Shown: positions 2,837-21,955, counted from the stretch's first letter. The stretch is 28,653 bases of DNA from an uncultured Planctomycetaceae bacterium (GCA_964461295.1 CAYWTX010000329.1:1-28653); one strand, 5' to 3'. Notes: generated from the letters alone by a model not told the origin. Program-made: numbers and translations.

Positions 2837-2998
2837 GGCTTTACCTTTCTTGGGTAGCGGGGATCATACCCGCGCGGACACGGAACGCCAAGCGGCGGCT
2901 TGGTCGATGCAAGCCGCGGACAAAGCAGGTTCTGTATGGCGGGCCGAGGCCGGCCGAAAACGACGGCACGTTCGCGCACCGCGTCGGTTAGAGGTGGT

Positions 2999-5900: not shown

Positions 5901-6460
5901 TCTCGTTTCGTGACGGCAAGGGCGATTACGGGGCGTGGGCCAACATGGCGAACATTGGGAGTTTCAAGACCAAAACGGGGGCCACGGTCACAATACCCGC
6001 CGGTGCGAGTGAGCCGGTGACGCTGCCGCCCGGGTTCTTCAGTTGGGCCGACCAATCGGCCGCCAGGCCGTTCTCCCTGGTCGCAGAACCGGGGTCCGGG
6101 CTCATGCAGACCGTAGGGGGAATGAACAGCAAAGGTTTTGCCATGTTTGTGAGCGCCACATGGAAGTCCATGCCGCGGTACACTCCCAATCCCTGGGGGT
6201 TGCACAACATGCACGGGAACGCGGCCGAATGGACGGCCACCGCCTATCGCCCCTATCCCTATGATGGGAAAGACGGACGCAATGAGGATGGCGGGGGCCT
6301 GCGCAGAGTGGTGCGTGGCGGTTCCTGCTTTGACCTGCCCACGCATTGCACAGCCAGTGTGCGTACATCGTTCCGCAGTTGGCAGGGCGTCCACAACGTG
6401 GGATTCCGCGTCATATGTGAAGTGGTCGACCCTGGCGAGAAAGCACGGGACCAGGAGTGA
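2999..6460 (+). CDS. Exported multidomain protein: TolB/PD40-like beta-propeller + two CxxCH heme-c motifs + C-terminal SUMF1/FGE-sulfatase-like domain
   Basis: The frame is open from 2900. The ATG at 2999 follows GAGGTGG and begins a signal-peptide-like segment (MSARSNAHWMAASLVGSLLCLSCLAAQ). Propeller blade motifs are DPVYMPDGRIVFLSTR, FSMKADGSDVRQLTF, WDPAVMNDGRVMYVRWEY and IFTMNPDGTNQRAL. The heme motifs are CVGCH at 4766-4780 and CAGCH at 4919-4933. FGE-sulfatase signatures appear in the last ~300 aa (LIPAGEFMMG, RVSWQQAAAFCRWLS, RLPTEAQWEWACRAGS, NMHGNAAEWT, RVVRGGS). Confidence 0.85.
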   Translation: MSARSNAHWMAASLVGSLLCLSCLAAQRGPSPATNPGVAAPASAPASSGVNGPDDTVAKAARLRLAIEDLIATFGDRYARGREYLRRLNALVEGRGQESLDELRDQALLDNPLLDDIQGLLVLVGAGGSDGGTMSVSAHIGKAIGLVSPVRPGKSETAPGMKILYESKLGPEEVAKYKCKWDASKGSVGFINLHYDARKFLFSAAARNGYQIFEMNVDGSGLRQVSSDEHPYVDNFDPVYMPDGRIVFLSTRMFQGVPCLGGEPHVANLFSMKADGSDVRQLTFEQDEDWDPAVMNDGRVMYVRWEYADTPHHHTRLIFTMNPDGTNQRALMKSNSYWPNAIFYPRPIPNHATRFVGVISGHHGGGRSGPMYVFDPGMANEASSAVVQRIPPDPNELHKSPRWLEESSYDGPPRMSCPKYSHPHPLADAEGRGAGKYFLAGGAVVDVFGNSVGLAGGGAEVVPIQVRPRPPIIPDRTDRTRKDALVYLADIHRGGGLEGVPRGTVKKLRVFEYSFGYRDTKSAGEAGKGWSGPWEPHRIWGTVPVEADGSAHFLVPAMTPLALQPLDAEGKALQVMRSWFVAQPGESISCVGCHERPKDVSSGTMVGAAFRRPPNPIEPWYGPPRGFGFHREVQPVLNKHCAGCHTGANVPKGVRKPNLVSESLRVSTAKNGRTAINPSDSFTNLLPYIHRPSSESDYVMHPAAEFDADASPLIQMLRSGHGGVKLDAESWDRLVTWIDLNAPAFGTWREGWSIPAPQGGEEDFSELRRKMRRLYAGIDDDPESVPSSPVDLGPPVKHQSPPAAPVPDCPGWPFDPNAAAKMQQTAGARTSRRVVLVAGETARDVVLDMALIPAGEFMMGANEGRPDERPMARVKIDRPFWMGTFEITNQQYNLFDRQHDSRYHNQPSCHLGGRGWPMNHPLQPVVRVSWQQAAAFCRWLSEKTGEKFRLPTEAQWEWACRAGSDKPLSFRDGKGDYGAWANMANIGSFKTKTGATVTIPAGASEPVTLPPGFFSWADQSAARPFSLVAEPGSGLMQTVGGMNSKGFAMFVSATWKSMPRYTPNPWGLHNMHGNAAEWTATAYRPYPYDGKDGRNEDGGGLRRVVRGGSCFDLPTHCTASVRTSFRSWQGVHNVGFRVICEVVDPGEKARDQE

Positions 6461-9968: not shown

Positions 9969-12026
9969 GTGAACAAGACAAGCGAATGGTTCTACGGTCA
10001 CATGCGGCAGGTCCACATGGACTTCCACATGCCGGAGTTCCCGGCAAGGGCGGTCAGTAGCTTCGATGCCAAGCGATTTGTCGAGCACCTGCTTCACGGG
10101 AAGGTGAACCTGGTCGCGCTGTTCGCCAAGTGCCACTTTGGGAACTCGTTCTACAACACCCGGGTGGGGCACAAGCACGCCGGGTTGCCGAACGACTTTC
10201 TCATGGAGGCGGCCGAGGAGTGCCGTCGCCACGGGATCGCGACGTTGGCATATTACTCTCTTTGCGCCGACCGGCGGGCCTACGACCGGTGCCCGCACTG
10301 GCGGAAGATCCGCCCGGACGGCACGTGCGAGCCCTTGCACGGGCCCTGGGGAAGCGTGTGCACCAATACCTCCTACCGCGAGGAGTTGGCGTTGCCGCAG
10401 TTGGAGGAGATTGCCCGCGGCTACCCGGTGGACGGCTTCTGGATTGACATCCCGATCCCAGGGCGGTGTTTCTGTCCGCGCTGCAAGGAGAAGTTCCGCG
10501 TCTTCCGCGGCAAGGATCTGGATGAGACCGTGCCCCATGACGAGCAACTGGCGTTTCAGTACGCCTGTGCGGCCGGGTTCCTCAAGGAACTGCGGGGGAT
10601 CGTCAACCGCACGAATCCCGAGTTGAGGATCGGCGCCAACAGCGCCGGCTCGCTGCCGGAACCGCGGTCGTTCGCCGACGTCTGCGACTTCGGCTGTTGG
10701 GAAAGCCAGCCGGGGTCCAACTACCTTTCGCACAGTTACGCGGCCCGGTACGTGCGAACGCTGTCCATGCCGATGCAGGTGATGTCCGTCCGCTTCTACC
10801 AGGGCTGGGGCGACTTGACGCTCAAGCCCGAGGCGCAGATGACCACGGAGTTCGCCGCGATGATCGGCAACGGGTGCGTCGCGACCGCCGGCGATCAGGT
10901 CAACGTGGACGGCACGCTTCAGCCGGCCGTCTACACCATGTTCCGCCGCGCGTTTGGCTTCGTCGAGGAACGCGAGAGCATCCTGCGTGGGGCGAAGTCG
11001 GTGAAGCACGCGGCCCTGGTGGCCCCGGCCTACGATCGCGATGCCTCCGTGTGGCGGGCGACGTGGCACCCCGCCATGCGGGGCGCGCACAAGGCGTTGC
11101 TGGAAAGGCACGTGCAGTTCGACATCCTCAGTTCGGTCGACGAAGACCAGTTCGCCCAGTACCGCTTGGCGGTTCTGCCCGAGCCGTGCGACTACCACCC
11201 GGCGTTCTTCGACCGGCTGCGGGAGTGGGTGCGGGCGGGCGGCGCTCTGGTCGCGGTCGGCGCATCCACGCTCCGCGACGGCAAGTTCCACCTGGAGGAC
11301 GTCCTGGGCGTCGAGTATCTGGAGCCGCTGGTCTTCCCGCTCTGCCACTTCCGGCCCGAGCCCGTGCTCGCGCCACTCATGGACGACCTGCCGCTCCAGT
11401 GTCGCGGCCGCGCACAGAAGGTTCTAGCCGCGTCGGCCACGCCGATCGCGAGCCTGTACTACCCCGAGAGCGAGCCGGCGGCCGACCGGTCGTTCCGCCA
11501 CGAGGAGTGCCCGCCGCCGTCGGACGTGCCCTCGGCCCATCCGTTTGCCACTATCAACCAGTTCGGCAAAGGCAAGGCCGTCTACATCAGCGGCCCGGTA
11601 TTCGCCGTCTACTGGCAGCGCAACCACCATTGGTTGGCGCAGTTCGTGGAGGCCGTCTTCGGACTGCTCGACCCGCTGCCGCCCTATCGGGTGGACGCCT
11701 CGGGTCTGGTCGAGGCCAACCTCATGCGTTCGGCGCAGGGCGACCTCCTGCTCAACCTGATCCACTACCAGCCCGGCCACCAGGCCGACGCGGCCGCGAT
11801 TCCCGCAATCGAGCGCGTCCATCCGCTTTCGAGCATCCGTTGCGAGGTGAAGGCCCCCGGCGCCGCCCGGGTGATGCTGGAGCCCGAAGGCCGCCAACTG
11901 GAGTTCGAGGCAAGAGAAGGCTATGTACGGTTCATCGTGCCCGAGTTGGAGCATCTGGCCGTCGTGAGGATCGCGTTGCCGGGGTCGTCCAGGATTGTCC
12001 GAAAGGGTCAAAGGAGCCGGAAATGA
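9969..12026 (+). CDS. Putative glycoside hydrolase of the GHL6 type with a beta-galactosidase-trimerisation-like (GH42M-like) middle domain
   Basis: GGAGG at 9957-9961 lies 7 nt before GTG 9969. TTG 9966 and ATG 10002 are alternative starts. The N-terminus MRQVHMDFHMPEF…FAKCHFGNSFYNT…HGIATLAYYS matches my recollection of the GHL6 TIM-barrel start. The later segment LAVLPEPCDYHPAFFDRLREWVRAGGALVAVG resembles the amidotransferase-like middle domain of GH42 enzymes. No signal peptide is evident. Confidence 0.65.
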   Translation: MNKTSEWFYGHMRQVHMDFHMPEFPARAVSSFDAKRFVEHLLHGKVNLVALFAKCHFGNSFYNTRVGHKHAGLPNDFLMEAAEECRRHGIATLAYYSLCADRRAYDRCPHWRKIRPDGTCEPLHGPWGSVCTNTSYREELALPQLEEIARGYPVDGFWIDIPIPGRCFCPRCKEKFRVFRGKDLDETVPHDEQLAFQYACAAGFLKELRGIVNRTNPELRIGANSAGSLPEPRSFADVCDFGCWESQPGSNYLSHSYAARYVRTLSMPMQVMSVRFYQGWGDLTLKPEAQMTTEFAAMIGNGCVATAGDQVNVDGTLQPAVYTMFRRAFGFVEERESILRGAKSVKHAALVAPAYDRDASVWRATWHPAMRGAHKALLERHVQFDILSSVDEDQFAQYRLAVLPEPCDYHPAFFDRLREWVRAGGALVAVGASTLRDGKFHLEDVLGVEYLEPLVFPLCHFRPEPVLAPLMDDLPLQCRGRAQKVLAASATPIASLYYPESEPAADRSFRHEECPPPSDVPSAHPFATINQFGKGKAVYISGPVFAVYWQRNHHWLAQFVEAVFGLLDPLPPYRVDASGLVEANLMRSAQGDLLLNLIHYQPGHQADAAAIPAIERVHPLSSIRCEVKAPGAARVMLEPEGRQLEFEAREGYVRFIVPELEHLAVVRIALPGSSRIVRKGQRSRK

Positions 12027-13090
12027 AGCGATTGTGGATCGTCGGGTCGGTTGTGAGCATGTTGGCGGCCGTCGTTCCTGCCGACCTGGGGGGGCAGACC
12101 CCTGCCCCCGCGACCTCCAAGCCCGGTGCGGCCCCGGCCGCTCCGGCGGCAGCCGCGAACGCGGCGCCGACGCGGGAGGAATCGATCCGCCTGACCCTTG
12201 CCGCCATCGACCAGGAACTCAAGGACCACGGCGGGACCTTCGAGAAGTGGGGCGCGTCGATCAAGCCGTACCGCGACCAGCTATCCAAGCTCAAGAACCC
12301 GGCGATCAAGTGGCCCTGGCCGGCGAAGCATGACTTCGCCTTCCAGGGCAGAGAGATCGACCTGGTGATGCTCGACACGTTCGACAACGAGCCGGAAGGC
12401 AAACGCCCGTTCGAGGCCATCCTGGAGGTCCACAAGAGACTCAAGGAGCAGGGGGTCGACCTGATCTACGCGCCCCTGCCCGACAAGCTGGCGATCTACC
12501 CGGATTACCTGTCGGACACTGCGCCGGCCGACAAGATGGTCACCCCGGCGGTCAAGCAGTTGATGAAGAAGCTGTTGGGCAGCGGCGTTGAGTGCGTGGA
12601 CCTGTATCCGGCCTTCTACGCCCACCGCAAGGGGCATGGGGACGACAAGCCTCTTTATTACGACAAGAACAGCCACTGGCGGAACCTCGGCGCGCAACTG
12701 GCCGCCGCCGAGATCGCCCGCCCGCTCATGCGCTACGACTTCGTGCGGAAGGCCTTGGCTGAAGGGAACCGCTACTCGGTGAAACCCGACCGGCGGCAGT
12801 CGAGTTCGCCCGAAGACATCCTGGTGGTGCTGGACGCCAAGACCGGCGGACGCTATGCCGATGCCCCGGACTCGCCCATCCTCATCACCGGCGACAGCAA
12901 CCTGATGATGAACATGGGCACGGTCGGCGGGCATATGCCGGCCCATGTCGGCCGGCACATCGGCCTGCCGCTGGCGTTTGGCTCCAACACCATCCCATCG
13001 CAGCACTACGGCAAGCTGGGCGGAAAGAAAGTGGTGATCTGGTCCAACATAGCCCGCATGTTGGTGGGAATGGGTTACCCGACGAAGTAG
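12023..13090 (+). CDS. Exported AlgX/AlgJ-like SGNH-hydrolase-like protein (putative polysaccharide O-acetyltransferase/esterase)
   Basis: The ATG at 12023 overlaps the upstream stop (ATGA). It is the in-frame C-terminal part of the spurious 10697-13090 ORF. A signal-like N-terminus is present (MKRLWIVGSVVSMLAAVVPA). AlgJ/AlgX-type motifs are IYAPLPDKLAIYPDYL and YYDKNSHWRNLGAQLAA (DxxHW-type). Confidence 0.65.
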   Translation: MKRLWIVGSVVSMLAAVVPADLGGQTPAPATSKPGAAPAAPAAAANAAPTREESIRLTLAAIDQELKDHGGTFEKWGASIKPYRDQLSKLKNPAIKWPWPAKHDFAFQGREIDLVMLDTFDNEPEGKRPFEAILEVHKRLKEQGVDLIYAPLPDKLAIYPDYLSDTAPADKMVTPAVKQLMKKLLGSGVECVDLYPAFYAHRKGHGDDKPLYYDKNSHWRNLGAQLAAAEIARPLMRYDFVRKALAEGNRYSVKPDRRQSSSPEDILVVLDAKTGGRYADAPDSPILITGDSNLMMNMGTVGGHMPAHVGRHIGLPLAFGSNTIPSQHYGKLGGKKVVIWSNIARMLVGMGYPTK

Positions 13091-13111
13091 CGCGACCCGG
13101 AATGTGGCGGG

Positions 13112-14203
13112 CTAGAACCGTCCGAGGTCGCGTTCGGGCAGGAGCTTGCGGACGAGCACGTACCGCTGCTGGCGGTAGACGTTGAGTTCGCCGGTGATGC
13201 GGTAGAGAGGGGCCCGCAGGTAGCCCTTTGCGACGTGGGCGTCCTGCACCGCTTGCAGGAACTGCGAGGGCAGGATGCGAACGGGCGGCTCGCCGAGGGT
13301 GTTGTCCGACTCGAACCTCGCGGCCCACCAGCCGCCGCTGCCCGGGTCGGGCAGGACCCGCACGAGGCGGTCGACGATCATGGCGCCGCGGTCGGGCGCC
13401 AGCTCCTTGGTTGCCCCGGGCGCCACCGACGGCACGGGCGCCACCTTCGGCGGCGCCGTTTCCAGCAGGACCGGCTTGCCGACCTTCTCGCTCATGAGTT
13501 GGCCGAACACCGCATCGGCCGAGGGTCCGGGCTTGGCCGGGCGCGAGGCCGGGCCGGAGGCGGGCGCGGTGGCCGGGGCCGAAGCGGGCACGGGCGGCGG
13601 CGGGGGCGCGGGCGAGGCAACCTTTGGCGCGGGCGAGGGTCCCTCGTCCACCACGGTTGCCTTGCGGGGCATGAGGTAGGCGTGGTCGCGGAAGACGAAC
13701 GTCTCGCCGGAGACGCGGAACCGCACGTGGATGGACTGGACGGCGTGCTGTTGCATCACCTCCAGCAACCGGCAGGGCATGACGCGGCGCGCCGGCTCGG
13801 GCGCCTTGGCGGGCTCGTTCTCGAAGGTGAGCAGGTACCACTGGGCAGCATCGTCCAGCGAGAGCCGGCAGAGACGGTCGATGACCATGCTGCCGTCGGT
13901 GGGCAGGTCGGGGCGCTGCCTGGGCGCCTCGACGCCGACGGGCGTGGAAACGGGCACGGGCGGCCGATCGAGCAGCATGCGGGCGATGGCGCCGCTTTCG
14001 TCCGAGGCGGACATGTCGAAGGCGGGACGCGACGGGCGGTTGGGATCGGGCGCTGGCTGGGCCCGCGCCGACACACAGGGGGCGCCGACCAACAGGGCCG
14101 CCCAAAGGCATGCCGCGACGGATGTCGTGCCGCTGTTCAAGATACCAGGATTGTAGCGAGCAGGGGCTGGCAGGGGAAGCCTTCGCGCGATCAGGTGTCC
14201 CAT
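13112..14203 (-). CDS. Exported hypothetical protein with two tandem copies of an unassigned ~85-aa domain joined by a Pro/Ala-rich linker
   Basis: 363-aa ORF with a signal-like segment (TSVAACLWAALLVGAPCVSARAQP). The internal duplication pairs MVIDRLCRLSLDDAAQWYLLTFENE…RVMPCRLLEVMQQ…VRFRVSGETFVFRDHAYLMPRK with MIVDRLVRVLPDPGSGGWWAARFESD…RILPSQFLQAVQD…LYRITGELNVYRQQRYVLVRK. The linker is SPAPKVASPAPPPPPVPASAPATAPASGPASRPAKPGP. Confidence 0.7.
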   Translation of the reverse strand: MGHLIARRLPLPAPARYNPGILNSGTTSVAACLWAALLVGAPCVSARAQPAPDPNRPSRPAFDMSASDESGAIARMLLDRPPVPVSTPVGVEAPRQRPDLPTDGSMVIDRLCRLSLDDAAQWYLLTFENEPAKAPEPARRVMPCRLLEVMQQHAVQSIHVRFRVSGETFVFRDHAYLMPRKATVVDEGPSPAPKVASPAPPPPPVPASAPATAPASGPASRPAKPGPSADAVFGQLMSEKVGKPVLLETAPPKVAPVPSVAPGATKELAPDRGAMIVDRLVRVLPDPGSGGWWAARFESDNTLGEPPVRILPSQFLQAVQDAHVAKGYLRAPLYRITGELNVYRQQRYVLVRKLLPERDLGRF

Positions 14204-14303
14204 CTCAATGGAAGTGTCACTGTCACTGGTTTGTGCTGCAACTAAAGTGTCACCCCGTGCCCCCCGTCAAGGCGGCGGAGCGGAGGGAGGCGTCATCATT
14301 CGC

Positions 14304-14792
14304 TCACATGCCCTTCGTGAAGATCACCTTGTCGTCGCCGACGCTGTAGAAGTCCTTCACGCGCGCGGCGATGCCGTAGCCGCAGCGCAGGTAGAACTGC
14401 CGCGTCGGCTCGTACTGCTCGCGGCCGTTGGTTTCCACCACGGCCAGGCGGCCCCCGAACTGGCCGATGGACCGTTCGGAGTGGGCCATCAACGCCTTGC
14501 CGATGCCCTTGCCCTGTACCGTGCGGCACACGGCGATCCAGTAGATGTCGTAGGTGCCGACCGTGCATGGAGTGGGGCCAAAGCACACCCAGCCGACGGC
14601 GCGGCCGGAGAGTTCGGCGGTGCAGGACTGGTAGTGCCCCGAAGGTCCCTTGGCAAGGGCGTCGTCGAGGACCTCGGCGGCGATGTCGATCTCGTCGGGG
14701 CGGAACATGCCGGTGGCGAGCATGAAGTCGAGGATGGCCTGGCGGTCGGAAGCCCGACTCGGACGAATTGTCAAATGCGGAGTATTGTGCAC
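14304..14792 (-). CDS. GNAT-family N-acetyltransferase
   Basis: 162-aa ORF with a GTG start at 14792. The acetyl-CoA-binding motif is VCRTVQGKGIGKALM (Q/RxxGxG/A), in the usual GNAT context (…YDIYWIAV…, …FYLRCGY…). It is the last gene of the minus-strand kamA cluster. Confidence 0.85.
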   Translation of the reverse strand: MHNTPHLTIRPSRASDRQAILDFMLATGMFRPDEIDIAAEVLDDALAKGPSGHYQSCTAELSGRAVGWVCFGPTPCTVGTYDIYWIAVCRTVQGKGIGKALMAHSERSIGQFGGRLAVVETNGREQYEPTRQFYLRCGYGIAARVKDFYSVGDDKVIFTKGM

Positions 14793-14842
14793 TATTGGTC
14801 TTTCTGTCGCCCCCGCGGGGCTCCGGTGCCTGCTATGTGGTG

Positions 14843-14864
14843 GCCGGGGGCTTTCGCCCCCGGC
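14843..14864 (-). terminator. Perfect 9-bp GC hairpin (GCCGGGGGC-TTTC-GCCCCCGGC) between the ATP-grasp genes and the GNAT gene
   Basis: The stem-loop is seen directly. It lies 67 nt downstream of the stop at 14931, and a second small palindrome CCCCGCGGGG sits at 14811-14820. There is no U-tract on either strand, so a terminator role is uncertain. It could be an attenuator or an RNA-stability element. Confidence 0.3.
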
Positions 14865-14930
14865 CAGACCCTGACCGCCCCTCCGGGGCGAAGAGCCAAG
14901 ATGGTTCTGCCGGCTGTCCTCTTGTCCGGA

Positions 14931-16049
14931 TCATGCCCTCATCGCGTTCTCGACGCAGTTGCGGACAAAGTCCTCGCAGGCCCAGCCGGCGAAGTCGACG
15001 GCCGAGGCGAACCCGCCTTCGGGCGAGATATCGGGGTTGGGGTTCACTTCGAGCACCATCGGGCGTCCGGCCTCGTCGAGGCGGAAGTCCACGCGGGCGT
15101 AGTCGCGGCAGCCGAGAGCCTGCCAGGCCCGCAGGCTGATCTGCCGCGTCAGCCGTTCGACGCGGCGAGGCAAGGGGGCGGGGAGGATCCGGGGAGTATT
15201 GTTGTATCCGAACGTGTTCGGCAGCCACTTGGCCGCGTAGTCCACGATCCGGTGCATGCCGGGCTGGAACGTGGAGAAGTCGATCTCGGCGACGGCTAGC
15301 ACCTCGGCCTGGCCGGCCCGCTCAACGACCGAGACGTTCAGTTCGCGGCCGTCGATGTACTGCTCGACGATGGCCGGCTGGGCGAATTTCTCGTGGATCT
15401 CGCGGAGGGCGCGGGCCAGGCGGGGGCCGGCGCCCGGCACGATGGACCGCTCGGCGTGGATGCCTTCGGATGCGTCGGTGAAGACGGGCTTGACGATCAG
15501 CGGCCCAGGCGGCAGGTCGGCCCGCGAGACGCGCTGGCCGGGATCGACGAGCACGGCCCGGGGCACGGGCACGCCTGCGGCCGACAGGACGGCCTTGCTC
15601 CGCCACTTGTCCAGCGACAGGGCCAGGCATTCGGTGGTGTTGCCGGTGAAACTCCGTCCCATCGCGATGCAGACGGCGGGCGCCAGGTTTGCCTCCTGCG
15701 GGCGCTGCTGGAAGCCTTCGACGAGGTTGAACACGACGGGCTCATCGCCGGCGGCGAGGGCGGCGGGCACATCCCGTAGCGTGGCGGCCGAGGCCTTCCG
15801 GCAGGTCGCGCCGAGGCGGTCGAGGGCGGCGGCGACGGCGTTGACTTCCTCCAGGACGCCGGCTTCGCTCTCGATGTAGCCGCCGGCGGCGCCGGCAGCG
15901 GCGGGCTCGTTGTAGAGGATGACGACGGAGGGGAGCCTTTCGCGCCGGGATTCCTCGCGCCGCGAGCGATCGGACCCAAAACGGGCGAGCCGCTCTCTTC
16001 CCGAGAATCGGCAATCGGCAATCGGCAATTCGCACTCTCCCTTACGCAC
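14931..16049 (-). CDS. ATP-grasp ligase, D-alanine--D-alanine ligase-like (second of two)
   Basis: Ddl-family landmarks are present: SVVILYNEP…ESEAGVLEEVNAVAAALDRLG, LIVKPVFTDASEGI, AIVEQYIDGRELNVSVV and VLEVNPNPDISPEG. The GTG at 16049 overlaps the upstream stop by 8 nt. An alternative in-frame TTG at 16028 lies 7 nt after AAGGGAGAG. No ATG occurs before the conserved core. Confidence 0.8.
   Translation of the reverse strand: MRKGECELPIADCRFSGRERLARFGSDRSRREESRRERLPSVVILYNEPAAAGAAGGYIESEAGVLEEVNAVAAALDRLGATCRKASAATLRDVPAALAAGDEPVVFNLVEGFQQRPQEANLAPAVCIAMGRSFTGNTTECLALSLDKWRSKAVLSAAGVPVPRAVLVDPGQRVSRADLPPGPLIVKPVFTDASEGIHAERSIVPGAGPRLARALREIHEKFAQPAIVEQYIDGRELNVSVVERAGQAEVLAVAEIDFSTFQPGMHRIVDYAAKWLPNTFGYNNTPRILPAPLPRRVERLTRQISLRAWQALGCRDYARVDFRLDEAGRPMVLEVNPNPDISPEGGFASAVDFAGWACEDFVRNCVENAMRA
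16006..16030. repeat. 3.5 tandem copies of the heptamer AATCGGC at the junction of the two ATP-grasp genes
   Basis: AATCGGC AATCGGC AATCGGC AATT is read directly. On the coding (minus) strand it gives GAATTGCCGATTGCCGATTGCCGATTC, with TTG triplets at a 7-nt spacing. One of these (16028) is a candidate start codon. Confidence 0.6.
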
Positions 16050-17019
16050 GTTTCATCGCGCTCAGAAGGATCTCCGAGATCAGATGTCTGTAGCTCATTC
16101 CTTCCTGCGTGGCGATCATCGGCAGGTCGCTGTGCGTGGGGTGCATGCCCGGCAGCGGGTTGACCTCGATGAAGCTCGGGCGGCCGTCGGCGTCGAGGCG
16201 GATGTCGACGCGGCTGACGTCGCGGCATTCGAGGGCGATGTGTGCCCGCAGGGCGAGGTCCTCGACGGCGCTGCGGACAGGCCCGCGCCGCGGGGCCGAG
16301 TAGCGCACCAGTTTCTCGCACTTCTCCTTCATCTCGAAGGAGTAGATCGCCTTGCCGTCGTCGGGCAGGATCTCCACCTCCATCGTGCCGATCACGCGGG
16401 CGTCGGCCCCCGTGCCGAGGACGGCGGTGGTGAACTCGCGCCCGGGGAGGTACTCCTCCACCAGCACGCTCTGGCGGTACTTCGCCAGCAGCGCTCGGCA
16501 TGCGGCGGGGAGCTGGTCGGGCGTGTCGATGCGGGAGGCGGCGTCGATGCCCTTGCCCGTGCCCTCGGCGATGGGCTTGACGAACAGCGGGTAGCGCAGT
16601 GCATGGCCGTCCAGTTGGGCTTCGCTGCCGACCACGAGGAACTCCGGCGTTCGCAGGCCGGAGGCCCGCACGAGCCGTTTGGCGACGGCCTTGTCCAGCG
16701 TGGCCGCGCTCACCAGCGGGTCGGAGAACGTGTACGGCACGCCGTACAGTTCGAGAATGGCGGGCACCTGGGCCTCGCGGCTGCGGCCGGCCAGGCCCTC
16801 AGCGATGTTGAACACGAGGTCCCATCGGTCGCCGGCGACGAGACGCTTGCACAACGCGCGGGCATGGCCGATGCGGTCGGTCGTGTGGCCGAGCGAGCCA
16901 ATGGTCGACTCGATCGCCTCGATGGTCGATTCGCTGTCGAACTCCGCGACGTCCTCGATGCCGTAGCCTTCGGCGAGGTAGTCGGTCCGCAGATCGTATG
17001 TCAGGCCGATGGCGGCCAT
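16042..17019 (-). CDS. ATP-grasp ligase, D-alanine--D-alanine ligase-like (first of two)
   Basis: The ATG at 17019 is preferred over the TTG at 17046 (MAAIGLTYDLRTDY…). Motifs are LFVKPIAEGTGKGI, VLVEEYLPGREFTTAVLG and FIEVNPLPGMHPTHSDLP. The protein ends at TAA 16042-16044. Confidence 0.85.
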   Translation of the reverse strand: MAAIGLTYDLRTDYLAEGYGIEDVAEFDSESTIEAIESTIGSLGHTTDRIGHARALCKRLVAGDRWDLVFNIAEGLAGRSREAQVPAILELYGVPYTFSDPLVSAATLDKAVAKRLVRASGLRTPEFLVVGSEAQLDGHALRYPLFVKPIAEGTGKGIDAASRIDTPDQLPAACRALLAKYRQSVLVEEYLPGREFTTAVLGTGADARVIGTMEVEILPDDGKAIYSFEMKEKCEKLVRYSAPRRGPVRSAVEDLALRAHIALECRDVSRVDIRLDADGRPSFIEVNPLPGMHPTHSDLPMIATQEGMSYRHLISEILLSAMKRA

Positions 17020-17071
17020 GGGTGCTCCACATCGATCAAGCCGCAAGGGACGCGGGCAAAGAAGAGACGTT

Positions 17072-17096
17072 CACAGATCACACAGATATCACAGAT
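17072..17096. repeat. Three copies of CACAGAT at 9-nt period in the kamA/ATP-grasp spacer
   Basis: CACAGATca CACAGATat CACAGAT is read directly. It is followed by an 8-bp hairpin, CAAGAGGA-N8-TCCTCTTG, at about 17097-17120. Confidence 0.5.
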
Positions 17097-17186
17097 CAAG
17101 AGGACAAGGTTCTCCTCTTGTCTTTCCTCTGCGCAATCTGCACTACTATCCGCAACTTTCTTCGTCTCCCGCGCTGATTCTTCAAT

Positions 17187-17213
17187 CGCAGAGGGCGCAG
17201 AGGACGCAGAGAA
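17187..17213. repeat. Three copies of CGCAGAGnn at 9-nt period in the same spacer
   Basis: CGCAGAGGG CGCAGAGGA CGCAGAGAA is read directly. Related CTCTGCG/CTCCGCG words recur at about 17137-17146, 17231-17260 and 17322-17335. A 7-bp hairpin, CGCGGGC-AAG-GCCCGCG, lies at 17270-17286. Confidence 0.5.
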
Positions 17214-17345
17214 GGGCTCTGGAAGAAGGTCTCCGCGATCTCGGCGTTCTCTGCGATCAGCCCTTCGGTCGCGGGCAAGGCCCGCGCTGGGCAATCCACG
17301 GACCGTCTCTTCCCTGCCCCTCCGCGTCTCCGCGGCCAGCGACGT

Positions 17346-18746
17346 TCACTGAAACAACGGGGTCTGGATGGTCTGCACGTGCTCGTGGCTCGCGCGGGGT
17401 TGGGGGGTGCGGCCCTGCACGCTGGGGCGCACCTTCGCCTCGCGCCGGTCCTGGCGGGCCGTGTGCGCCGGCTGAATCTTCGACGCCCGCCCGCACGTCA
17501 GGTCGTGGACGGTGGGGGAGTCGATCTCGGCCGTCGCGGGCGCCACGTTGGCGTTGGGCTCCGGGTAGGACACGAGCACGCCTTCGAAGTTCCGAAGCAC
17601 CGTGTGCGACGGGCTGCTGGAAACGATGTACGTGGGCAGCACGGGGATCTTGCCGCCGCCGTGGGGGGCGTCCACGACGAACGTCGGGATCGCCAGCCCG
17701 CTCAGCCGCCCGCGCAGAAACTCCATGATCTCCACGCCCCGGCTGATCGGCGTGCGGAAATGCTCCACGCCGCGGACCAGGTCGCATTGGTACAGGTAGT
17801 ACGGGCGCACGCGCATCCGCACCAGCCGCCGGCAGAGGTCCATCATCAGGGCGGGGTCATCGTTGATCCCGCGCAGCAGCACGGACTGGTTGCCCATGGG
17901 CACGCCCGCGTCGACGAGCTTGCGGCAGGCTTCCCGCGCTTCGGGCGTGATCTCCGAGGGGTGGTTGAAGTGCGTGTTCAGCCACAGCGGGTGGTGCTTG
18001 CGCAGCATGGCCACCAGCGAATCGGTGATCCGCATGGGCATCGTCACGGGCACGCGCGTCCCGATACGAATGATCTCGACGCTGGGCACGGCCCGCAGGG
18101 CCGCCAGGACCCGGTCCAGCGCCTCGTCGCCCATCGTGAGCGGGTCGCCGCCGGATACGATGACGTCATGCACTTCGCCGTGGGCCGTCAGGTACGCCAC
18201 GACCTGGCTCAGGCGCGAGGCGGAGATGCACGATTCCCGGTGCCCGGCGGCGCGCTTCCGCGTGCAGTGCCGGCAGTACATCGCGCACGTCGTCGTCGCG
18301 ATCAGCAGGGCGCGGTCGCCGTAGCGGTGCACCAGGCCCGGCACGGGCATGTCGTGGTCTTCCTCGAGCGGGTCGTCGGCCAGGAACGGCGGATCGAACA
18401 GCTCGTGAAGCTGCGGCACGGCCATGCTGAAGACCGGGTCGGTGGGCCCCAATTCGCGAATGAGCGAAGCATAGTACGGGGTGATCGCAAGCGGAAACTT
18501 CTCGGCGGCCTGTGCCAACCCCGCTTCAGGCCGCAGGGAAGGGTAGAATTCCTGAAGCTGCTCCACGCTTCGGATTCTGTGGCGCATCTGCCACTGCCAA
18601 TCGCTCCAGCGAGCGTCGTTTCTCAGCGAGGCAAGCTTGGCCGATGGCGTTACGCCGTCTGCCCGTCCGCCTCCGTCCGTGCCGGCGGACTTAGATGGAG
18701 GTTCATCACTTGAAACTGCGTCCGAGGCTTCGACCATTTCTAGCAT
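17346..18746 (-). CDS. kamA: Lysine 2,3-aminomutase (KamA/AblA family radical SAM, PLP-dependent)
   Basis: The radical-SAM cluster motif CAMYCRHC lies at 18264-18287. By recollection the protein is near full-length colinear with clostridial KamA (WSDWQWQMRHRI…ITPYY…DPLEEDHDMPVPGLVHRY…VSGGDPL…WLNTHFNHPSEIT…GNQSVLLRGIND…RPYYLYQCDL…PTFVVDAPHGGGK). The frame is open to GTG 18779. The ATG at 18746 is preceded by AGGAG, which overlaps the TetR stop codon (TAGGAG). Confidence 0.9.
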   Translation of the reverse strand: MLEMVEASDAVSSDEPPSKSAGTDGGGRADGVTPSAKLASLRNDARWSDWQWQMRHRIRSVEQLQEFYPSLRPEAGLAQAAEKFPLAITPYYASLIRELGPTDPVFSMAVPQLHELFDPPFLADDPLEEDHDMPVPGLVHRYGDRALLIATTTCAMYCRHCTRKRAAGHRESCISASRLSQVVAYLTAHGEVHDVIVSGGDPLTMGDEALDRVLAALRAVPSVEIIRIGTRVPVTMPMRITDSLVAMLRKHHPLWLNTHFNHPSEITPEAREACRKLVDAGVPMGNQSVLLRGINDDPALMMDLCRRLVRMRVRPYYLYQCDLVRGVEHFRTPISRGVEIMEFLRGRLSGLAIPTFVVDAPHGGGKIPVLPTYIVSSSPSHTVLRNFEGVLVSYPEPNANVAPATAEIDSPTVHDLTCGRASKIQPAHTARQDRREAKVRPSVQGRTPQPRASHEHVQTIQTPLFQ

Positions 18747-18759
18747 AAACACGATTCTC

Positions 18760-19470
18760 CTACTTCTTGGGTTCGGCACCGGCAGGCCCCGTCGTCGTAC
18801 CCGGTTGGATCGACGGGGGCGTCCCCTGGTTGGCCAGGAACGCTTCAGACGCCGCTACAAACGCCTGCCGCATCGGACCCAGACTTTTCTTGATTTCCTC
18901 GGCCGCAAGATCGATCATCGCAAACGAAAGGAAGCCGGAAACAAACCCGGCTATCGCGTACGTCAGCCTCTGCACCTTCTTGCGGTCAAGTTGCAGCACA
19001 AAGGGCGTAAGGAAGTTCTCGATCTCGGTGAGATACCGCCGGTACGGCTGTTCCAGGTCCTCGATGGCTTCGCGCTGCAACTTCAGCAGCAACCTGCCCT
19101 GGAACAACAGGACGAACGCGTCGCGGCTGGTCTGCGAGAAGTCCCAATGCACCAGCAGCAGGCGGTCGAGGGCTTCAGGCAAGTTGCGCGGGGCAGGCTT
19201 GTGGTCGGAAAGTGCCGTAAGCAGAAGAGTTACCACGTCATCCACCAAAGCCACCATCAACTCCTCCCTGCAAGAGAAGTGCCGGTAGAAAGTCCCCTTG
19301 CCCAGGTCGGCCGCTTCGGTGATCTCTTCGATCGTGGTCGCGTCGGAGCCCTTGTCGGCGAACTTGCGGAGCGCTGCGTCCAGCAACCGCTTGCGGGTGC
19401 GTGAGGTACGTCGCGCGGAGCGTGTCTTGCGTGCTTCAGATTGTTCCACTGCAATCGCCATTTCGACCAA
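18760..19470 (-). CDS. TetR/AcrR-family transcriptional regulator
   Basis: The N-terminal HTH is RKRLLDAALRKFADKGSDATTIEEITEAADLGKGTFYRHFSCREEL, followed by an all-helical ligand-binding-type C-terminus. The start is TTG at 19470 or ATG at 19461. This is the first gene of the minus-strand cluster. Confidence 0.9.
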   Translation of the reverse strand: MVEMAIAVEQSEARKTRSARRTSRTRKRLLDAALRKFADKGSDATTIEEITEAADLGKGTFYRHFSCREELMVALVDDVVTLLLTALSDHKPAPRNLPEALDRLLLVHWDFSQTSRDAFVLLFQGRLLLKLQREAIEDLEQPYRRYLTEIENFLTPFVLQLDRKKVQRLTYAIAGFVSGFLSFAMIDLAAEEIKKSLGPMRQAFVAASEAFLANQGTPPSIQPGTTTGPAGAEPKK

Positions 19471-19480
19471 TCGTTAGGAG

Positions 19481-19509
19481 ATTATCGTCATGTCTGACCG
19501 AGTAGTCAA
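19481..19509 (-). promoter_or_regulatory. Sigma70-like promoter for the tetR-kamA cluster: TTGACT-N17-GATAAT on the minus strand
   Basis: The -35 TTGACT is the reverse complement of 19504-19509. The -10 GATAAT is the reverse complement of 19481-19486. The spacer is exactly 17 nt. The -10 lies about 10-20 nt upstream of the TetR start candidates, which implies a very short leader. Confidence 0.5.
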
Positions 19510-19525
19510 GAGTGACTTTGCGGTC
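19496..19525. promoter_or_regulatory. 30-bp imperfect palindrome overlapping the -35; candidate TetR operator
   Basis: The sequence is GACCGagtAGTCAagagTGACTttgCGGTC. The inner (AGTCA/TGACT) and outer (GACCG/CGGTC) arms are perfect inverted repeats, with 10 of 13 arm positions complementary. The core overlaps the TTGACT -35 box. Confidence 0.45.
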
Positions 19526-20044: not shown

Positions 20045-21955
20045 CTACTGCCTCTTGCCGCAAGCGGGGCAGAAGCCTCCGCCGGATTCCAGGGCGGCGC
20101 CGCAGTGGCGGCACCTGGCGCCCGCGCCGATGACCACCGGCGTGCCGGCCAGGCCGGCGACCACCATCGGTTGCGGCGCGGCGCGGCGCCCGGCCGCGGC
20201 CGCCGTCACCGCCGCCACCACCTGCTCCAGCGATGTCTTCATCAGCCGCTCCATGCGGTCGGCGTGCGAATCGGCCATCTGCTTCTGGTCGGCAAGCTGT
20301 TTCTCCAACGCGGCGGCCCGCTCCCCCGAGATCGCGCCCTCGTCGCGGTACTTCTGGGTCAGCGCCCTGGCCGCCTCCGGCGAGGCCGCCGCCGCCAACG
20401 CCAGAATCTGATCCGGCGTCATGTTCTGCTGCGCACGCACCCGCTCCAGCTCGACGATCCTCTCGGCGGCCGGGCCGTCCACAATCGCCATGATCGCCCG
20501 CGACGTGCTCTTGCTCAGCGCCTCCAGCCGCGCCGCCTCACGCTTCTGCTCGCGGTCCAGCGCGTCCTGTTCAACGGCCACCGTCTCCCGCAGCAGCCGC
20601 TGGCCCAGCTCCGCCTCCGCCTTGTCCCGCGCGAACTCGTCCCACTCGACCTTCTTCTTCAGGGCGTGCTCGGCCTCCTCCTGCCGCAGCTTCTCGCCGT
20701 GCTCCAATCGGCCCATCTCCAGCCGCACCTTGCCCTGTTCGGCCTCGCCCTTTGCCGCATCCAGGCGCCGCTGAAGACCGCGCATCTGCCGTTCGTCCTG
20801 CCGCCTTTCGTCGTGCAGCAGCGCTTCCCACTGCTTGGCCCGCTCGGCGCCGTCCTGAAGCGTCTCGATCTCGATCCGCCGCAGGATGCCCTCGCGGCCG
20901 CGCTCGAACTCCAGCCTTGCCGCCAGCCGCGCCATCTCGTCGCCCCGGATGACTTCCCGGAGCCCCAGTTCGTGCTCGGTCTGGCGGATGAACTGCTCGA
21001 GGTCCTTGCCCGTCTTGAACTCGTGCATCTTGTCCGTCGAGAACGTCTCCCGCAGGCGCTGGGCCAGCCTCGTCCGCTGCTCGGTGACGTCGGCCTCGCG
21101 ATCGGCAAAGCCCGCGCTCCGCTGCTTGTCGGCCAGGTCCGCCTCCCGCCGGCGAATCCTCTCGTAGGCCTCGCCGGCGAAGCTGACGAAGCGGATCTGC
21201 ACCAGCTCCAGCCCCATGCGCCGCAGCGTGGGCGCCACCGCCTGGCGAAGGTCTTCCTCGATCCGCGCGCGGATGGCGGGGTCGGTGAACAGCCGCTCGG
21301 CAGGATGCCGGCCGGCAATGCCCGCCAGGAGCATCTGGACCTCGTCGGCAAGTTGCTGCTCCATCTCGGCGACCGTCAGGACGTTGCGGCCCTTGAACAG
21401 GTTGACGTACAGCGCGTCCATGTCGGCGATGCGAAAGACGAGCCGCTCCACGCTGCCGACCTCGATCTTGTCGGCCGTCCACAGGCCGCCGTTCTCCAGG
21501 TCGATCGTCACGTCGCCGGCGTCGATGAGGACCACGGATGCGTCCTGATCGATCATGAAATGGTTGAGCCGGTTGAGGAACCCGCCCATGTCATGCCGGC
21601 CGGCCGGCAGTTCGGCGCGGAACCTGCCGGCCTGGAAGAGCAGCGCTCGCGTACCGTGGTCGATCACCAGCGGCTTGGCCAGCCAACCCTTGACATCCTG
21701 GTTGTCCACCCGGACGGCGAAGTCGCCGTCGCGGCGCGACCAGCGGTCGTTGAGCAGCGTCGGCTTGGCCACCTGCGACAGGTCGGCGCCGCAACGCCAG
21801 CAGAACTTGCTCGTCCGGGCCACCTCCGCGGCGCAGGACCCGCACTGCGTGAGTCCCTTGGGCCCCACGGCCCCGCACTTGGGGCAGAACTGCGAGCCCT
21901 TGCGCACGCGATAGTCGCATTCCCGATTCACGCACCGGTTCGTGAACAATCCCAT
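20045..21955 (-). CDS. Double zinc-ribbon + SPFH/Band-7-like domain + long Glu/Arg-rich coiled coil + C-terminal zinc-ribbon protein (YdjI/COG4260-like)
   Basis: The ATG at 21955 lies 6 nt after AAGGAG. The N-terminus has two CxxC…CxxC ribbons (CVNRECDYRVRKGSQFCPKCG; CGSCAAEVARTSKFCWRCG). Residues ~70-270 read as the Band_7_1 type of SPFH domain (…LVIDHGTRALLFQAGRF…GRHDM…VVLIDAGDVTIDL…VERLVFRIADMDALYVNLF…GLELVQIRFVSF). About 300 aa of heptad-like ER/EA/QR-rich sequence follows. The protein ends RCRHCGAALESGGGFCPACGKRQ. Confidence 0.75.
   Translation of the reverse strand: MGLFTNRCVNRECDYRVRKGSQFCPKCGAVGPKGLTQCGSCAAEVARTSKFCWRCGADLSQVAKPTLLNDRWSRRDGDFAVRVDNQDVKGWLAKPLVIDHGTRALLFQAGRFRAELPAGRHDMGGFLNRLNHFMIDQDASVVLIDAGDVTIDLENGGLWTADKIEVGSVERLVFRIADMDALYVNLFKGRNVLTVAEMEQQLADEVQMLLAGIAGRHPAERLFTDPAIRARIEEDLRQAVAPTLRRMGLELVQIRFVSFAGEAYERIRRREADLADKQRSAGFADREADVTEQRTRLAQRLRETFSTDKMHEFKTGKDLEQFIRQTEHELGLREVIRGDEMARLAARLEFERGREGILRRIEIETLQDGAERAKQWEALLHDERRQDERQMRGLQRRLDAAKGEAEQGKVRLEMGRLEHGEKLRQEEAEHALKKKVEWDEFARDKAEAELGQRLLRETVAVEQDALDREQKREAARLEALSKSTSRAIMAIVDGPAAERIVELERVRAQQNMTPDQILALAAAASPEAARALTQKYRDEGAISGERAAALEKQLADQKQMADSHADRMERLMKTSLEQVVAAVTAAAAGRRAAPQPMVVAGLAGTPVVIGAGARCRHCGAALESGGGFCPACGKRQ

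Follow-up and report, generated by a model that had tools for sequence, protein, structure and literature searches.

We analysed 28,653 nucleotides of DNA from an uncultured Planctomycetaceae bacterium (the window) and found that five co-directional genes on its minus strand, between positions 14304 and 19470, encode a TetR-family repressor, a lysine 2,3-aminomutase (KamA), two Ddl-fold ATP-grasp ligases (AG1 and AG2) and a GNAT N-acetyltransferase. We interpret them, with a probability of roughly 55%, as a biosynthetic operon, repressed by TetR, whose product is a cytoplasmic conjugate of beta-lysine. In bacteria and archaea, beta-lysine serves as an osmolyte precursor, as a modifier of EF-P and as a building block of antibiotics. 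We found no paper in the open-access literature that characterises the cluster or its product.

Layout and predicted control of the proposed operon

The five co-directional genes had been described in an earlier, sequence-only reading of this DNA, and Pfam and NCBIfam searches assigned to all of them the domains it had claimed (Table 1). As that reading had also stated, the stop codon of tetR (TAG, 18762-18760) forms the first half of TAGGAG, the Shine-Dalgarno sequence of kamA, which lies 10 nt ahead of an ATG that is also the start of the 466-aa NCBI copy of KamA. The overlap it proposed between the start of AG2 and the stop of AG1, however, needs a GTG at 16049 that lacks a Shine-Dalgarno sequence. 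The TTG at 16028 is preceded, at 6 nt, by GGGAGAG and is the start in both the NCBI and JGI copies (365 aa), so AG2 most likely begins 13 nt past the AG1 stop; from the sequence, the junction is most likely one of tight coupling rather than overlap. The open reading frame of tetR extends at most to a TTG at 19470. The JGI call for the GNAT (139 aa) drops N-terminal residues (9-23, containing the first beta-strand) that are apparently kept by the relatives and by the 177-residue chain of PDB 2R7H.

Table 1. Position of the operon's genes, regulatory region and spacers in the window
Feature	Coordinates	Strand	Basis
TetR-family repressor, first gene of the operon	18760..19461	-	ATG start of JGI call, 233 aa; TetR_N
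KamA, lysine 2,3-aminomutase, radical SAM, KamA/AblA type, 466 aa	17346..18746	-	Radical_SAM and LAM_C, 2A5H alignment
AG1, Ddl-fold ATP-grasp ligase, 325 aa	16042..17019	-	Dala_Dala_lig_C, residue comparison
AG2, second Ddl-fold ATP-grasp ligase, 365 aa, TTG start	14931..16028	-	Dala_Dala_lig_C, AG1 paralogue
GNAT N-acetyltransferase, 162 aa, GTG start at 14792	14304..14792	-	Acetyltransf_1, 2R7H family
tetR promoter interleaved with two TetR-type operators	19481..19516	-	promoter scan, pattern search, footprinting
kamA-AG1 spacer, non-coding, 326 nt	17020..17345	.	
AG2-GNAT spacer, 138 nt, two G+C-rich hairpins	14793..14930	.	sequence reading

The repressor covers the full TetR_N profile (52 bits). 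A promoter scan returned a single match, at 10 of 12 positions, with a -35 box (TTGACT) at 19509-19504 and a -10 box (GATAAT) at 19486-19481 ahead of tetR. The palindromic DNA previously placed at 19496-19525 is real, but it is not a single site: it consists of two 12-bp GTCA-N4-TGAC sequences, O1 (GTCACTCTTGAC, 19516-19505, minus strand) and O2 (GTCAGACATGAC, 19498-19487, minus strand). The pattern GTCANNNNTGAC was found in the window only at these two places, against 0.23 expected occurrences. Phylogenetic footprinting detected the same operator and promoter arrangement 5' of tetR in loci L007-L010, L012, L015, L027, L028, L030, L091 and L092; the GTCA-N4-TGAC sites are kept in more than 10 loci, where the TetR proteins are 30-80% identical. 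This conservation of the putative operators supports the TetR control suggested earlier. TetR would occupy both sites, covering the promoter's -35 and -10 boxes, until freed by a pathway-related ligand. The kamA gene lies directly 3' of tetR in 16 of 46 loci with full flanks, tetR overlaps kamA in L092 and L003, and the clusters of Desulfovibrio are under sigma-54 control in place of TetR.

The sequence-only reading was right that a spacer separates kamA from AG1, but this measures 326 nt (17020-17345) rather than 300 nt (17047-17345). It is specific to the lineage, being 54 nt long in the closest relative, L091, and replaced by overlapping genes in L092 and L003, and therefore gives no argument for unrelated functions. 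A hairpin, CAAGAGGAGAACCTTGTCCTCTTG, lies within it at 17120-17097, as does a 97-aa open reading frame with a GC3 of 0.56, against 0.88-0.90 for KamA, AG1, AG2 and GNAT. We found in this spacer no deacetylase remnant, no repeat and no relative in the other loci, and a pattern search of the window placed no GTCA-N4-TGAC operator there. The AG2-GNAT spacer occupies the position of the linker in the AG2-GNAT fusion protein of many relatives; a match to Acido-Lenti-1 on its opposite strand (23.7 bits, gathering score 37) is probably due to chance. Internal promoters or attenuators could lie within either spacer, so that transcription of the five genes as one unit is putative in this organism.

The enzymes and their conservation

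KamA aligned with the Clostridium subterminale lysine 2,3-aminomutase (2A5H) at 461 bits across 361 residues, and matched the Pfam families Radical_SAM (45 bits) and LAM_C (97.6 bits). It carries the CxxxCxxC motif noted before, as CAMYCRHC. The two acidic residues singled out in the sequence-only reading, the aspartates of YQCDLVRG and FVVDAPHGGGK, fall, when counted on this alignment, on D293 and D330 of 2A5H, which in that enzyme bind the epsilon-ammonium group of lysine, and both are retained in all 73 KamA proteins of the cluster type. The top NCBIfam model was TIGR03820 (507.8 bits, short of its cut-off of 525.4), followed by glutamate aminomutase (427.5), arginine aminomutase (354) and EpmB (243). 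The two aspartates and the lead of TIGR03820 over the glutamate model agree with lysine as the likely substrate, and, judged by sequence, KamA shows the features expected of a 2,3-aminomutase specific for lysine.

AG1 and AG2 are paralogues (31% identity, E = 7e-29), both labelled 'D-alanine-D-alanine ligase' by automatic annotation. Both matched Dala_Dala_lig_C in Pfam (109 and 81 bits, respectively), neither matched Dala_Dala_lig_N, and with the best Ddl model in NCBIfam, PRK01372, they scored 167.8 and 112.1 bits, well below the cut-off of 243. The 50 best PDB matches of an AF2 model of AG1 (pTM 0.82) were all Ddl or VanA (TM about 0.7). Both enzymes keep the residues that in DdlB serve ATP and Mg binding and catalysis (K97, K144, E180, E187, K215, R255, D257, E270 and N272). 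We then compared the D-Ala-binding set of Ddl, namely the E15-S150-Y216 triad, H63 and S281-L282. AG1 has the replacements H63E, S150T, Y216E and L282D (its E74, T154, E232 and S297-D298), which recur unchanged in 82-83 of the 83 proteins of its family; AG2 has H63E, S150A and Y216W (E104, A186, W268 and G338-G339), invariant or nearly so among 68. Canonical Ddl genes, with the H, S, Y, S and L/M residues kept, lie on the cluster contigs of L027 and L048. The residue comparison thus portrays AG1 and AG2 as catalytically intact Ddl-fold ATP-grasp ligases with exchanged D-alanine-binding residues, and their assignment as cell-wall Ddl paralogues was rejected on these substitutions, the sub-threshold scores and the separate canonical Ddl of the two relatives.

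The GNAT, by sequence a small acetyltransferase of the acetyl-CoA type, matched Acetyltransf_1 (43.7 bits), and its closest solved structure is 2R7H (123 bits), itself a GNAT of this cluster type; the PDB title of 2R7H reads 'putative D-alanine N-acetyltransferase'. At E <= 0.01 only the NCBIfam models rimI (33 bits) and PRK03624 (23 bits) matched the GNAT, and TIGR03827 (GNAT_ablB) did not. It is therefore no AblB orthologue, and the cluster is not a plain AblA/AblB pathway. In about a third of the loci there is an additional component, a GNAT fused to a deacetylase that is closest to the acetylpolyamine amidohydrolases (APAH) 6PHR and 3Q9B (about 240 bits). The HDAC motifs PPGHH, DxDxHHGNGT, GxD and EGGY are conserved across 22 of these deacetylases, and the GNAT-like domain, always N-terminal, has an intact R-G-x-G-x-G motif. 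The GNAT-deacetylase gene is absent from the window.

AG1 is the most conserved gene of the cluster (55-73% identity across phyla), and some 600 or more species-representative genomes, spanning over 10 phyla, contain it. Carriers of the cluster are mostly anaerobic bacteria and include Planctomycetota, Lentisphaerota, Verrucomicrobiota, Desulfobacterota, Acidobacteriota, Myxococcota, anammox bacteria and others, cultured Desulfovibrio species among them. In the 80 best AG1 loci, with denominators that vary by count, KamA lies upstream of AG1 in 69 of 73, AG2 downstream of AG1 in 66 of 72 and GNAT downstream of AG2 in 55 of 63, and all four core genes are together in 40 of 46. Such recurrence in dozens of unrelated genomes puts the arrangement far beyond chance. 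AG2 is fused to GNAT in 34 loci. KamA-AG1 (L029) and AG1-AG2 (L065) fusions were each seen once; both were found in metagenome-assembled genomes and may be artefacts of assembly. Minimal variants consist of KamA and AG1 alone. Around the relatives' clusters we found no conserved transporter or other extra neighbour gene. The possibility that the ATP-grasp genes are unlinked to kamA in relatives was rejected on the KamA linkage and the in-frame fusions. All parts of the earlier inference that can be judged from sequence were upheld, and no sequence observation of the kind that would have refuted it was made; the frequent GNAT-deacetylase, the broad spread of the cluster and its presence in cultured species go beyond what that reading had noticed.

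Proposed product and alternatives

In the pathway that we propose, KamA would convert L-lysine to beta-lysine, which AG1 would use directly to make the first ATP-dependent amide bond. AG1 is suggested as the user of beta-lysine by its conservation, the highest among these enzymes, by three gained invariant acidic residues in its substrate sites, by its fusion to KamA in one lineage and by the KamA-AG1-only variants. AG2 would then form a second amide bond on the product of AG1; for both ligases the substrates are deduced from the replaced residues and the neighbouring genes. The GNAT, which is joined to AG2 in half of the cases, would N-acetylate an amine, most probably the terminal N6 amine. 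This site is suggested by a gene that the window lacks, since the optional enzyme of the relatives is similar to acetylpolyamine amidohydrolases, whose substrates are terminal acetamido-alkyl groups that they hydrolyse. In clusters with the deacetylase, the acetyl may serve to protect the amine or mask its charge and be taken off again, whereas in the window, where that gene is absent, the pathway would end with the acetylated form. The most probable product is an N-acetyl-beta-lysyl dipeptide or a tripeptide-like amide, such as acetyl-beta-Lys-beta-Lys or X-beta-Lys(Ac)-Y, and it would act as a compatible solute or polyamine-like metabolite. Against the former role, a net-cationic beta-lysine oligomer would make a poor compatible solute.

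We suggest tentatively, and at less than even odds, that the cluster stands for a widespread, undescribed class of beta-lysine oligoamides (such as N-acetyl-beta-lysyl-beta-lysine or an X-beta-Lys-Y tripeptide), assembled by a dedicated pair of non-Ddl ATP-grasp ligases and serving anaerobes of more than 10 phyla as a new compatible solute or polyamine surrogate. The acetyl would then be a transient protecting group, added by the GNAT and removed by the acetylpolyamine-amidohydrolase-like enzyme.

It is unlikely, but worth weighing, that both ligases act iteratively and make poly- or oligo-beta-lysine, like the streptothricin chain or a cyanophycin-like nitrogen store, with acetylation as self-protection or capping and deacetylation as activation or mobilisation. 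The paralogous AG1 and AG2 could split initiation and elongation, the acidic residues gained in both AG1 substrate sites suit two cationic substrates, and a logic of protection and deprotection suits the GNAT and deacetylase; streptothricin resistance is likewise an acetylation, of the beta-amino group of beta-lysine. However, the neighbourhood shows no conserved gene for export, immunity or depolymerisation, the similarity to the cyanophycin-synthetase-like chain 7TA5 is marginal (E = 2e-4), and we know of no iterative action by Ddl-type enzymes.

TetR control suggests a small-molecule pathway, which counts against protein or peptide tagging, an explanation that we consider improbable. The ligases would here attach beta-lysine to a protein, as RimK, LysX and TTL do, or would yield a beta-lysylated factor independently of EpmA, and the amine so introduced would be acetylated by the GNAT and deacetylated by the deacetylase. 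Pairs of GNAT and HDAC, for example AcuA/AcuC, do regulate proteins elsewhere, but the cluster deacetylase is nearest to small-molecule acetylpolyamine amidohydrolases and not to class I protein deacetylases. RimI is the best named family of the GNAT, and AG1 and AG2 both match TTL, and AG2 a RimK-family model, weakly; yet the RimK, TTL and RimI scores are far under the cut-offs, apart from that of AG1 with TTL, which barely exceeds it (20.6 against 20.1), and the cluster has no conserved small carrier or target gene.

We give little credence to a catabolic lysine-utilisation operon via acetylated beta-lysine, like lysine fermentation or yodT-kamA of B. subtilis: although kamA of B. subtilis has genes for a GNAT (YodP) and a deacetylase-like protein (YodQ) in its operon, and some relatives of the present cluster pair a GNAT with a deacetylase, the neighbourhood shows no conserved beta-lysine 5,6-aminomutase, dehydrogenase, aminotransferase or CoA-transferase, and ATP-consuming ligases are biosynthetic. 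A plain N-epsilon-acetyl-beta-lysine osmolyte pathway, with two unrelated cell-wall Ddl paralogues inserted between KamA and GNAT, would explain the AblA/AblB-like pairing and the automatic Ddl annotation, but is barely credible in view of the lost D-Ala residues, the low Ddl scores, the accompanying canonical Ddl genes, the linkage and fusions with KamA and GNAT across phyla, and a GNAT that is not AblB.

If the operon makes a beta-lysine conjugate, as we favour, its spread would imply that a metabolite derived from lysine is common in anoxic habitats and has so far gone unrecognised. The Ddl fold would gain two new substrate specificities, and the misannotation of thousands of proteins as 'D-alanine--D-alanine ligase', as well as the title of 2R7H, would be corrected. 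The question is directly testable, as the cluster is found in cultured, genetically tractable Desulfovibrio species.

Comparison with known systems

The AblA/AblB system of methanogens and some bacteria employs the same aminomutase subfamily followed by an acetyl-CoA-dependent GNAT, and its likely outcome is equally a charge-masked beta-lysine derivative. In contrast, the present cluster has two obligatory ATP-grasp ligases, a GNAT of the 2R7H type, often an added deacetylase, and TetR or, in Desulfovibrio, sigma-54 control. With DdlA/B and VanA the ligases share the fold and the ATP, Mg and catalytic residues, but their substrate residues are changed and their genes are linked to kamA instead of mur/fts. 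The deacetylase of the relatives resembles APAH in sequence and keeps the HDAC motifs, and differs in its N-terminal GNAT-like domain and in its absence from the window.

NAGGN synthesis (Ngg, AsnO) also combines, within a single protein or operon, N-acetylation with an ATP-grasp peptide bond to give an acetylated dipeptide osmolyte, and the AG2-GNAT fusions mirror the bifunctional GNAT and ATP-grasp protein Ngg. The domain order and ATP-grasp clade differ, however, the present ligases being Ddl-like, the building block is beta-lysine rather than glutamine, and no amidotransferase is conserved in the cluster. No Ngg-type model was among the 25 best NCBIfam matches of AG2 (of 37) or of the AG2-GNAT fusion (of 34), which comprised Ddl, Van, RimK-family, argininosuccinate-lyase-type and RimI models only.

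The yodT-yodS-yodR-yodQ-yodP-kamA operon of B. subtilis likewise has kamA beside a GNAT and a deacetylase-type gene. It encodes an aminotransferase and CoA-transferases, lacks an ATP-grasp ligase, and is considered to serve in lysine degradation or sporulation. The negamycin and streptothricin clusters resemble the present one in combining beta-lysine formation with amide-forming enzymes, and in the negamycin (neg) cluster an ATP-grasp gene is next to beta-lysine formation (bioRxiv 10.1101/2025.05.27.656397). Those clusters, however, are rare, belong to actinomycetes and carry numerous genes for tailoring and export, whereas the module described here is compact, comprising four to six genes, and is spread over more than 10 phyla.

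Distribution of the gene set

Relatives of AG1, the first of the two tandem Ddl-fold ATP-grasp ligases, were sought with two AG1-specific motifs in a single genome for each species. At least 600 stretches matched, and 597 of 600 were confirmed; across phyla, the AG1 relatives show 55-73% identity. Judged by record title, the carriers include Planctomycetota (among them Kuenenia and Brocadiia), Lentisphaerae, Verrucomicrobiota, Eisenbacteria, Sumerlaeota, Myxococcota, Acidobacteriota, Gammaproteobacteria, Spirochaetaceae, Desulfobacterota, Bacteroidales and Krumholzibacteriia.

Synteny was counted over the 80 best loci. The KamA gene lies 5′ of AG1 in 69 of 73 loci, confirming the proposed linkage of the ATP-grasp genes to kamA, AG2 follows AG1 in 66 of 72, and a GNAT gene is found downstream in 55 of 63. 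Of the five genes described in the sequence-only reading, the four core genes are complete in 40/46 loci and tetR is part of the cluster in 16/46; a deacetylase gene is likewise present in 16/46. AG2 and the GNAT form a single ORF in 34 loci, and genes overlap at L003 and at L092 (the next relative after the closest one, L091). We also noted two in-frame fusions, KamA-AG1 in a Victivallales MAG (L029:2353-4830, 825 aa) and AG1-AG2 in a Sumerlaeota MAG (L065:3395-5443, 682 aa); each occurs once and in a MAG, and may be an assembly error. A few reduced loci carry KamA and AG1 alone, some with the deacetylase.

Clustering of the ORFs of 83 loci recovered only the cluster genes and TetR, with no further conserved neighbour such as a transporter, an amidotransferase or a carrier protein. 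In one Sumerlaeota locus (L007) the cluster is flanked by the genes of a TIR/SEFIR-domain protein and of an asparagine synthase (10640-11605 and 12571-14436), neither of them conserved in other loci.

Organization and predicted regulation of the operon

The window comes from a metagenome-derived contig, with copies at JGI (3300037485 Ga0393267_0000451) and NCBI, and its nearest relatives are Planctomycetota/Phycisphaerae metagenome-assembled genomes.

Features of the operon, listed in the direction of transcription
Feature	Position	Strand	Remarks
Promoter-operator region	19481-19516	minus	
tetR	18760-19461	minus	domain by Pfam and NCBIfam
kamA	17346-18746	minus	domain by Pfam and NCBIfam
kamA-AG1 spacer	between kamA and AG1	minus-strand operon	326 nt
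AG1	16042-17019	minus	domain by Pfam and NCBIfam
AG2	14931-16028	minus	domain by Pfam and NCBIfam
AG2-GNAT spacer	between AG2 and GNAT		138 nt; two G+C-rich hairpins
GNAT gene	14304-14792	minus	domain by Pfam and NCBIfam

As originally read, the kamA Shine-Dalgarno sequence contains the tetR stop codon: TAGGAG lies 10 nt ahead of the kamA ATG, the same ATG that is used in the NCBI copy of the protein. The most probable start codon of AG2 is the TTG at 16028, which follows GGGAGAG and lies 13 nt past the AG1 stop; the length of AG2 in both the NCBI and JGI copies, 365 aa, agrees with this start. The overlap of the AG2 start with the AG1 stop, suggested previously, requires a GTG at 16049, which is less likely. 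Right behind the GGGAGAG, AG2 opens with three perfect tandem copies of the heptamer TTGCCGA (16005-16028, minus strand), and the approximately 35 N-terminal residues that they begin are not conserved among relatives.

Between 14000 and 19800, a promoter-like sequence, TTGACT-17-GATAAT, occurs only at 19509-19481. Two GTCA-N4-TGAC palindromes overlap its -35 box and abut its -10 box; they are the only matches in the window, where 0.23 would be expected by chance, and neither internal spacer contains one. Upstream of tetR in many other loci we found the same order, TTGAC, (G)GTCA-N4-TGAC and (T/G)ATAAT, frequently with a second palindrome, among TetR proteins of only 30-80% identity. We regard this shared layout as the phylogenetic footprint of a predicted, autoregulated TetR operator.

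The kamA-AG1 spacer occupies the position of the deacetylase gene in other clusters, and measures 54 nt in the closest relative. It is not a recognizable relic of that gene, as tblastn of two deacetylase proteins gave chance matches only (E > 1). The evidence is also against a conserved RNA, a mobile element or a small gene, on each count: the spacer has no Rfam match, is not repeated within the window and does not resemble any of 28 further kamA-AG1 spacers that are 60 nt or longer. A 97-aa, R/D/E-rich ORF that fills the spacer (17001-17294, minus strand) has a GC3 of 0.56, versus 0.88-0.90 in KamA, AG1, AG2 and GNAT; it is probably not a gene, because no gene caller predicts it and related loci have no homologue. 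The same spacer contains a hairpin with an 8-bp stem (17097-17120, CAAGAGGA(N8)TCCTCTTG), which scans as terminator-like on the plus strand, that is, antisense to the operon. In Kuenenia (L073:7227-8000) and a related Planctomycetota MAG (L087:7498-8000) a segment of conserved coding sequence lies between kamA and AG1; the two copies are 57% identical over 159 aligned codons.

The hairpins of the AG2-GNAT spacer, read antisense to the operon (14844-14890, plus strand), match the Acido-Lenti-1 RNA with 23.7 bits versus a gathering score of 37 (Rfam). This sub-threshold match is probably due to chance, since 11 related loci, Lentisphaerae and Acidobacteria among them, gave no match at the gathering level.

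Two further genes of the window were noted. By the precomputed Pfam matches of the JGI gene, a large ORF at 2900-6460 (plus strand, ~1100-1186 aa) encodes an HZS_alpha (hydrazine-synthase alpha-like) domain and an FGE-sulfatase domain. Upstream of the operon, 20045-21955 (minus strand) encodes a protein of 636 aa that has a double zinc ribbon at its N-terminus, a Band_7/SPFH domain and then a long, E/R/A-rich, coiled-coil-like tail; the gene is not conserved beside the cluster in other loci.

Predicted activities of the encoded enzymes

KamA aligns with the lysine 2,3-aminomutase of C. subterminale (2A5H) over 361 residues with 461 bits, contains the CAMYCRHC motif and has two aspartates at the positions of 293 and 330. 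Its top NCBIfam model is AblA, at 507.8 bits slightly below the cut-off of 525.4, ahead of the glutamate (427), arginine (354) and EpmB (243 bits) models. Both aspartates are retained in all 73 KamA homologues adjoining AG1 relatives, which argues against glutamate or arginine as the aminomutase substrate even in the more distant clusters. Given the 2A5H match, the AblA model and these aspartates, beta-lysine formation is the predicted conserved first step.

AG1 and AG2 are paralogues (31% identity). Among solved structures, strong matches to them are limited to Ddl and VanA; the top 50 structure matches of an AG1 AlphaFold model (pTM 0.82) are all Ddl/VanA, with a TM of ~0.7. We aligned 83 AG1 and 68 AG2 sequences with E. 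coli DdlB, whose sequence was checked to be identical to 1IOV/2DLN. Both families retain K97, K144, E180, E187, K215, R255, D257, E270 and N272. In contrast, substrate residues are replaced, invariantly or nearly so: H63 by Glu in both families, S150 by Thr in AG1 and Ala in AG2, Y216 by Glu in AG1 and Trp in AG2, and L282 by Asp in AG1. The Ddl model scores of AG1 (168) and AG2 (112) are far under the cut-off of 243. Furthermore, two loci (L027 and L048) have a separate, canonical Ddl on the same contig, with His, Ser, Tyr, Ser and Leu/Met at the tested positions. AG1 and AG2 are therefore predicted to be active Ddl-fold ligases for substrates other than those of Ddl, bearing out the earlier view that they are not ordinary Ddl paralogues. 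The three acidic residues gained in AG1 would suit a cationic substrate, such as beta-lysine.

The GNAT of the window is not AblB (NCBIfam). Its nearest solved relative (123 bits) is 2R7H, a 'putative D-alanine N-acetyltransferase', whose sequence shares 99% identity with a protein encoded on Desulfovibrio alaskensis-like contigs. These contigs and D. mangrovi CP104208.1 have the order sigma-54 enhancer-binding protein, KamA, AG1, AG2, GNAT, so the cluster has cultured carriers, and a structure has been solved for one of its components. The D. mangrovi cluster additionally has the GNAT-deacetylase, a protein of ~590 aa encoded in about one third of clusters. It combines an N-terminal GNAT-like domain, in which R-G-x-G-x-G is preserved, with a C-terminal deacetylase domain that has intact HDAC catalytic motifs and is nearest, among solved structures, to acetylpolyamine amidohydrolases (~240 bits). 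The gene was not found anywhere in the window and is likewise missing from the closest relative, L091; the next one, L092, has it.

In two Desulfovibrio loci (L088:3857-5569 and L089:3874-5560) the enhancer-binding protein precedes the cluster, replacing TetR. In L088, the interval between its gene and kamA contains TGGCAT-N5-TTGC (5457-5471), a -24/-12 element with one mismatch; L089 has it at the corresponding position (5488-5502), there just within the 5′ end of the kamA ORF as called. As a candidate sigma-54 promoter it is only suggestive, because overall match counts are not above chance.

Proposed pathway and relation to known systems

The above results support a dedicated operon that would form beta-lysine and convert it into a cytoplasmic conjugate through two ATP-dependent amide-bond formations and N-acetylation. 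We infer the reaction order, the co-substrates and the position that is acetylated. We favour a scheme in which AG1 would act first, on beta-lysine, and acetylation would be at N6, because the partner deacetylase resembles acetylpolyamine amidohydrolases. Iterative synthesis of poly-beta-lysine ranks below this conjugate pathway, as do protein tagging and plain acetyl-beta-lysine synthesis accompanied by unrelated Ddl genes; catabolism is also ranked lower.

We found no published account of the cluster in 8 million open-access full texts, and papers on Pelobacter, D. alaskensis G20 and the D. vulgaris sigma-54 regulome make no mention of it. ATP-grasp gene neighbourhoods were reportedly surveyed by Iyer et al. 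in 2009. The cluster is widespread and experimentally tractable. Its enzyme types are individually known, but their combination differs from the AblA/AblB pathway, from Ddl and from NAGGN synthesis.
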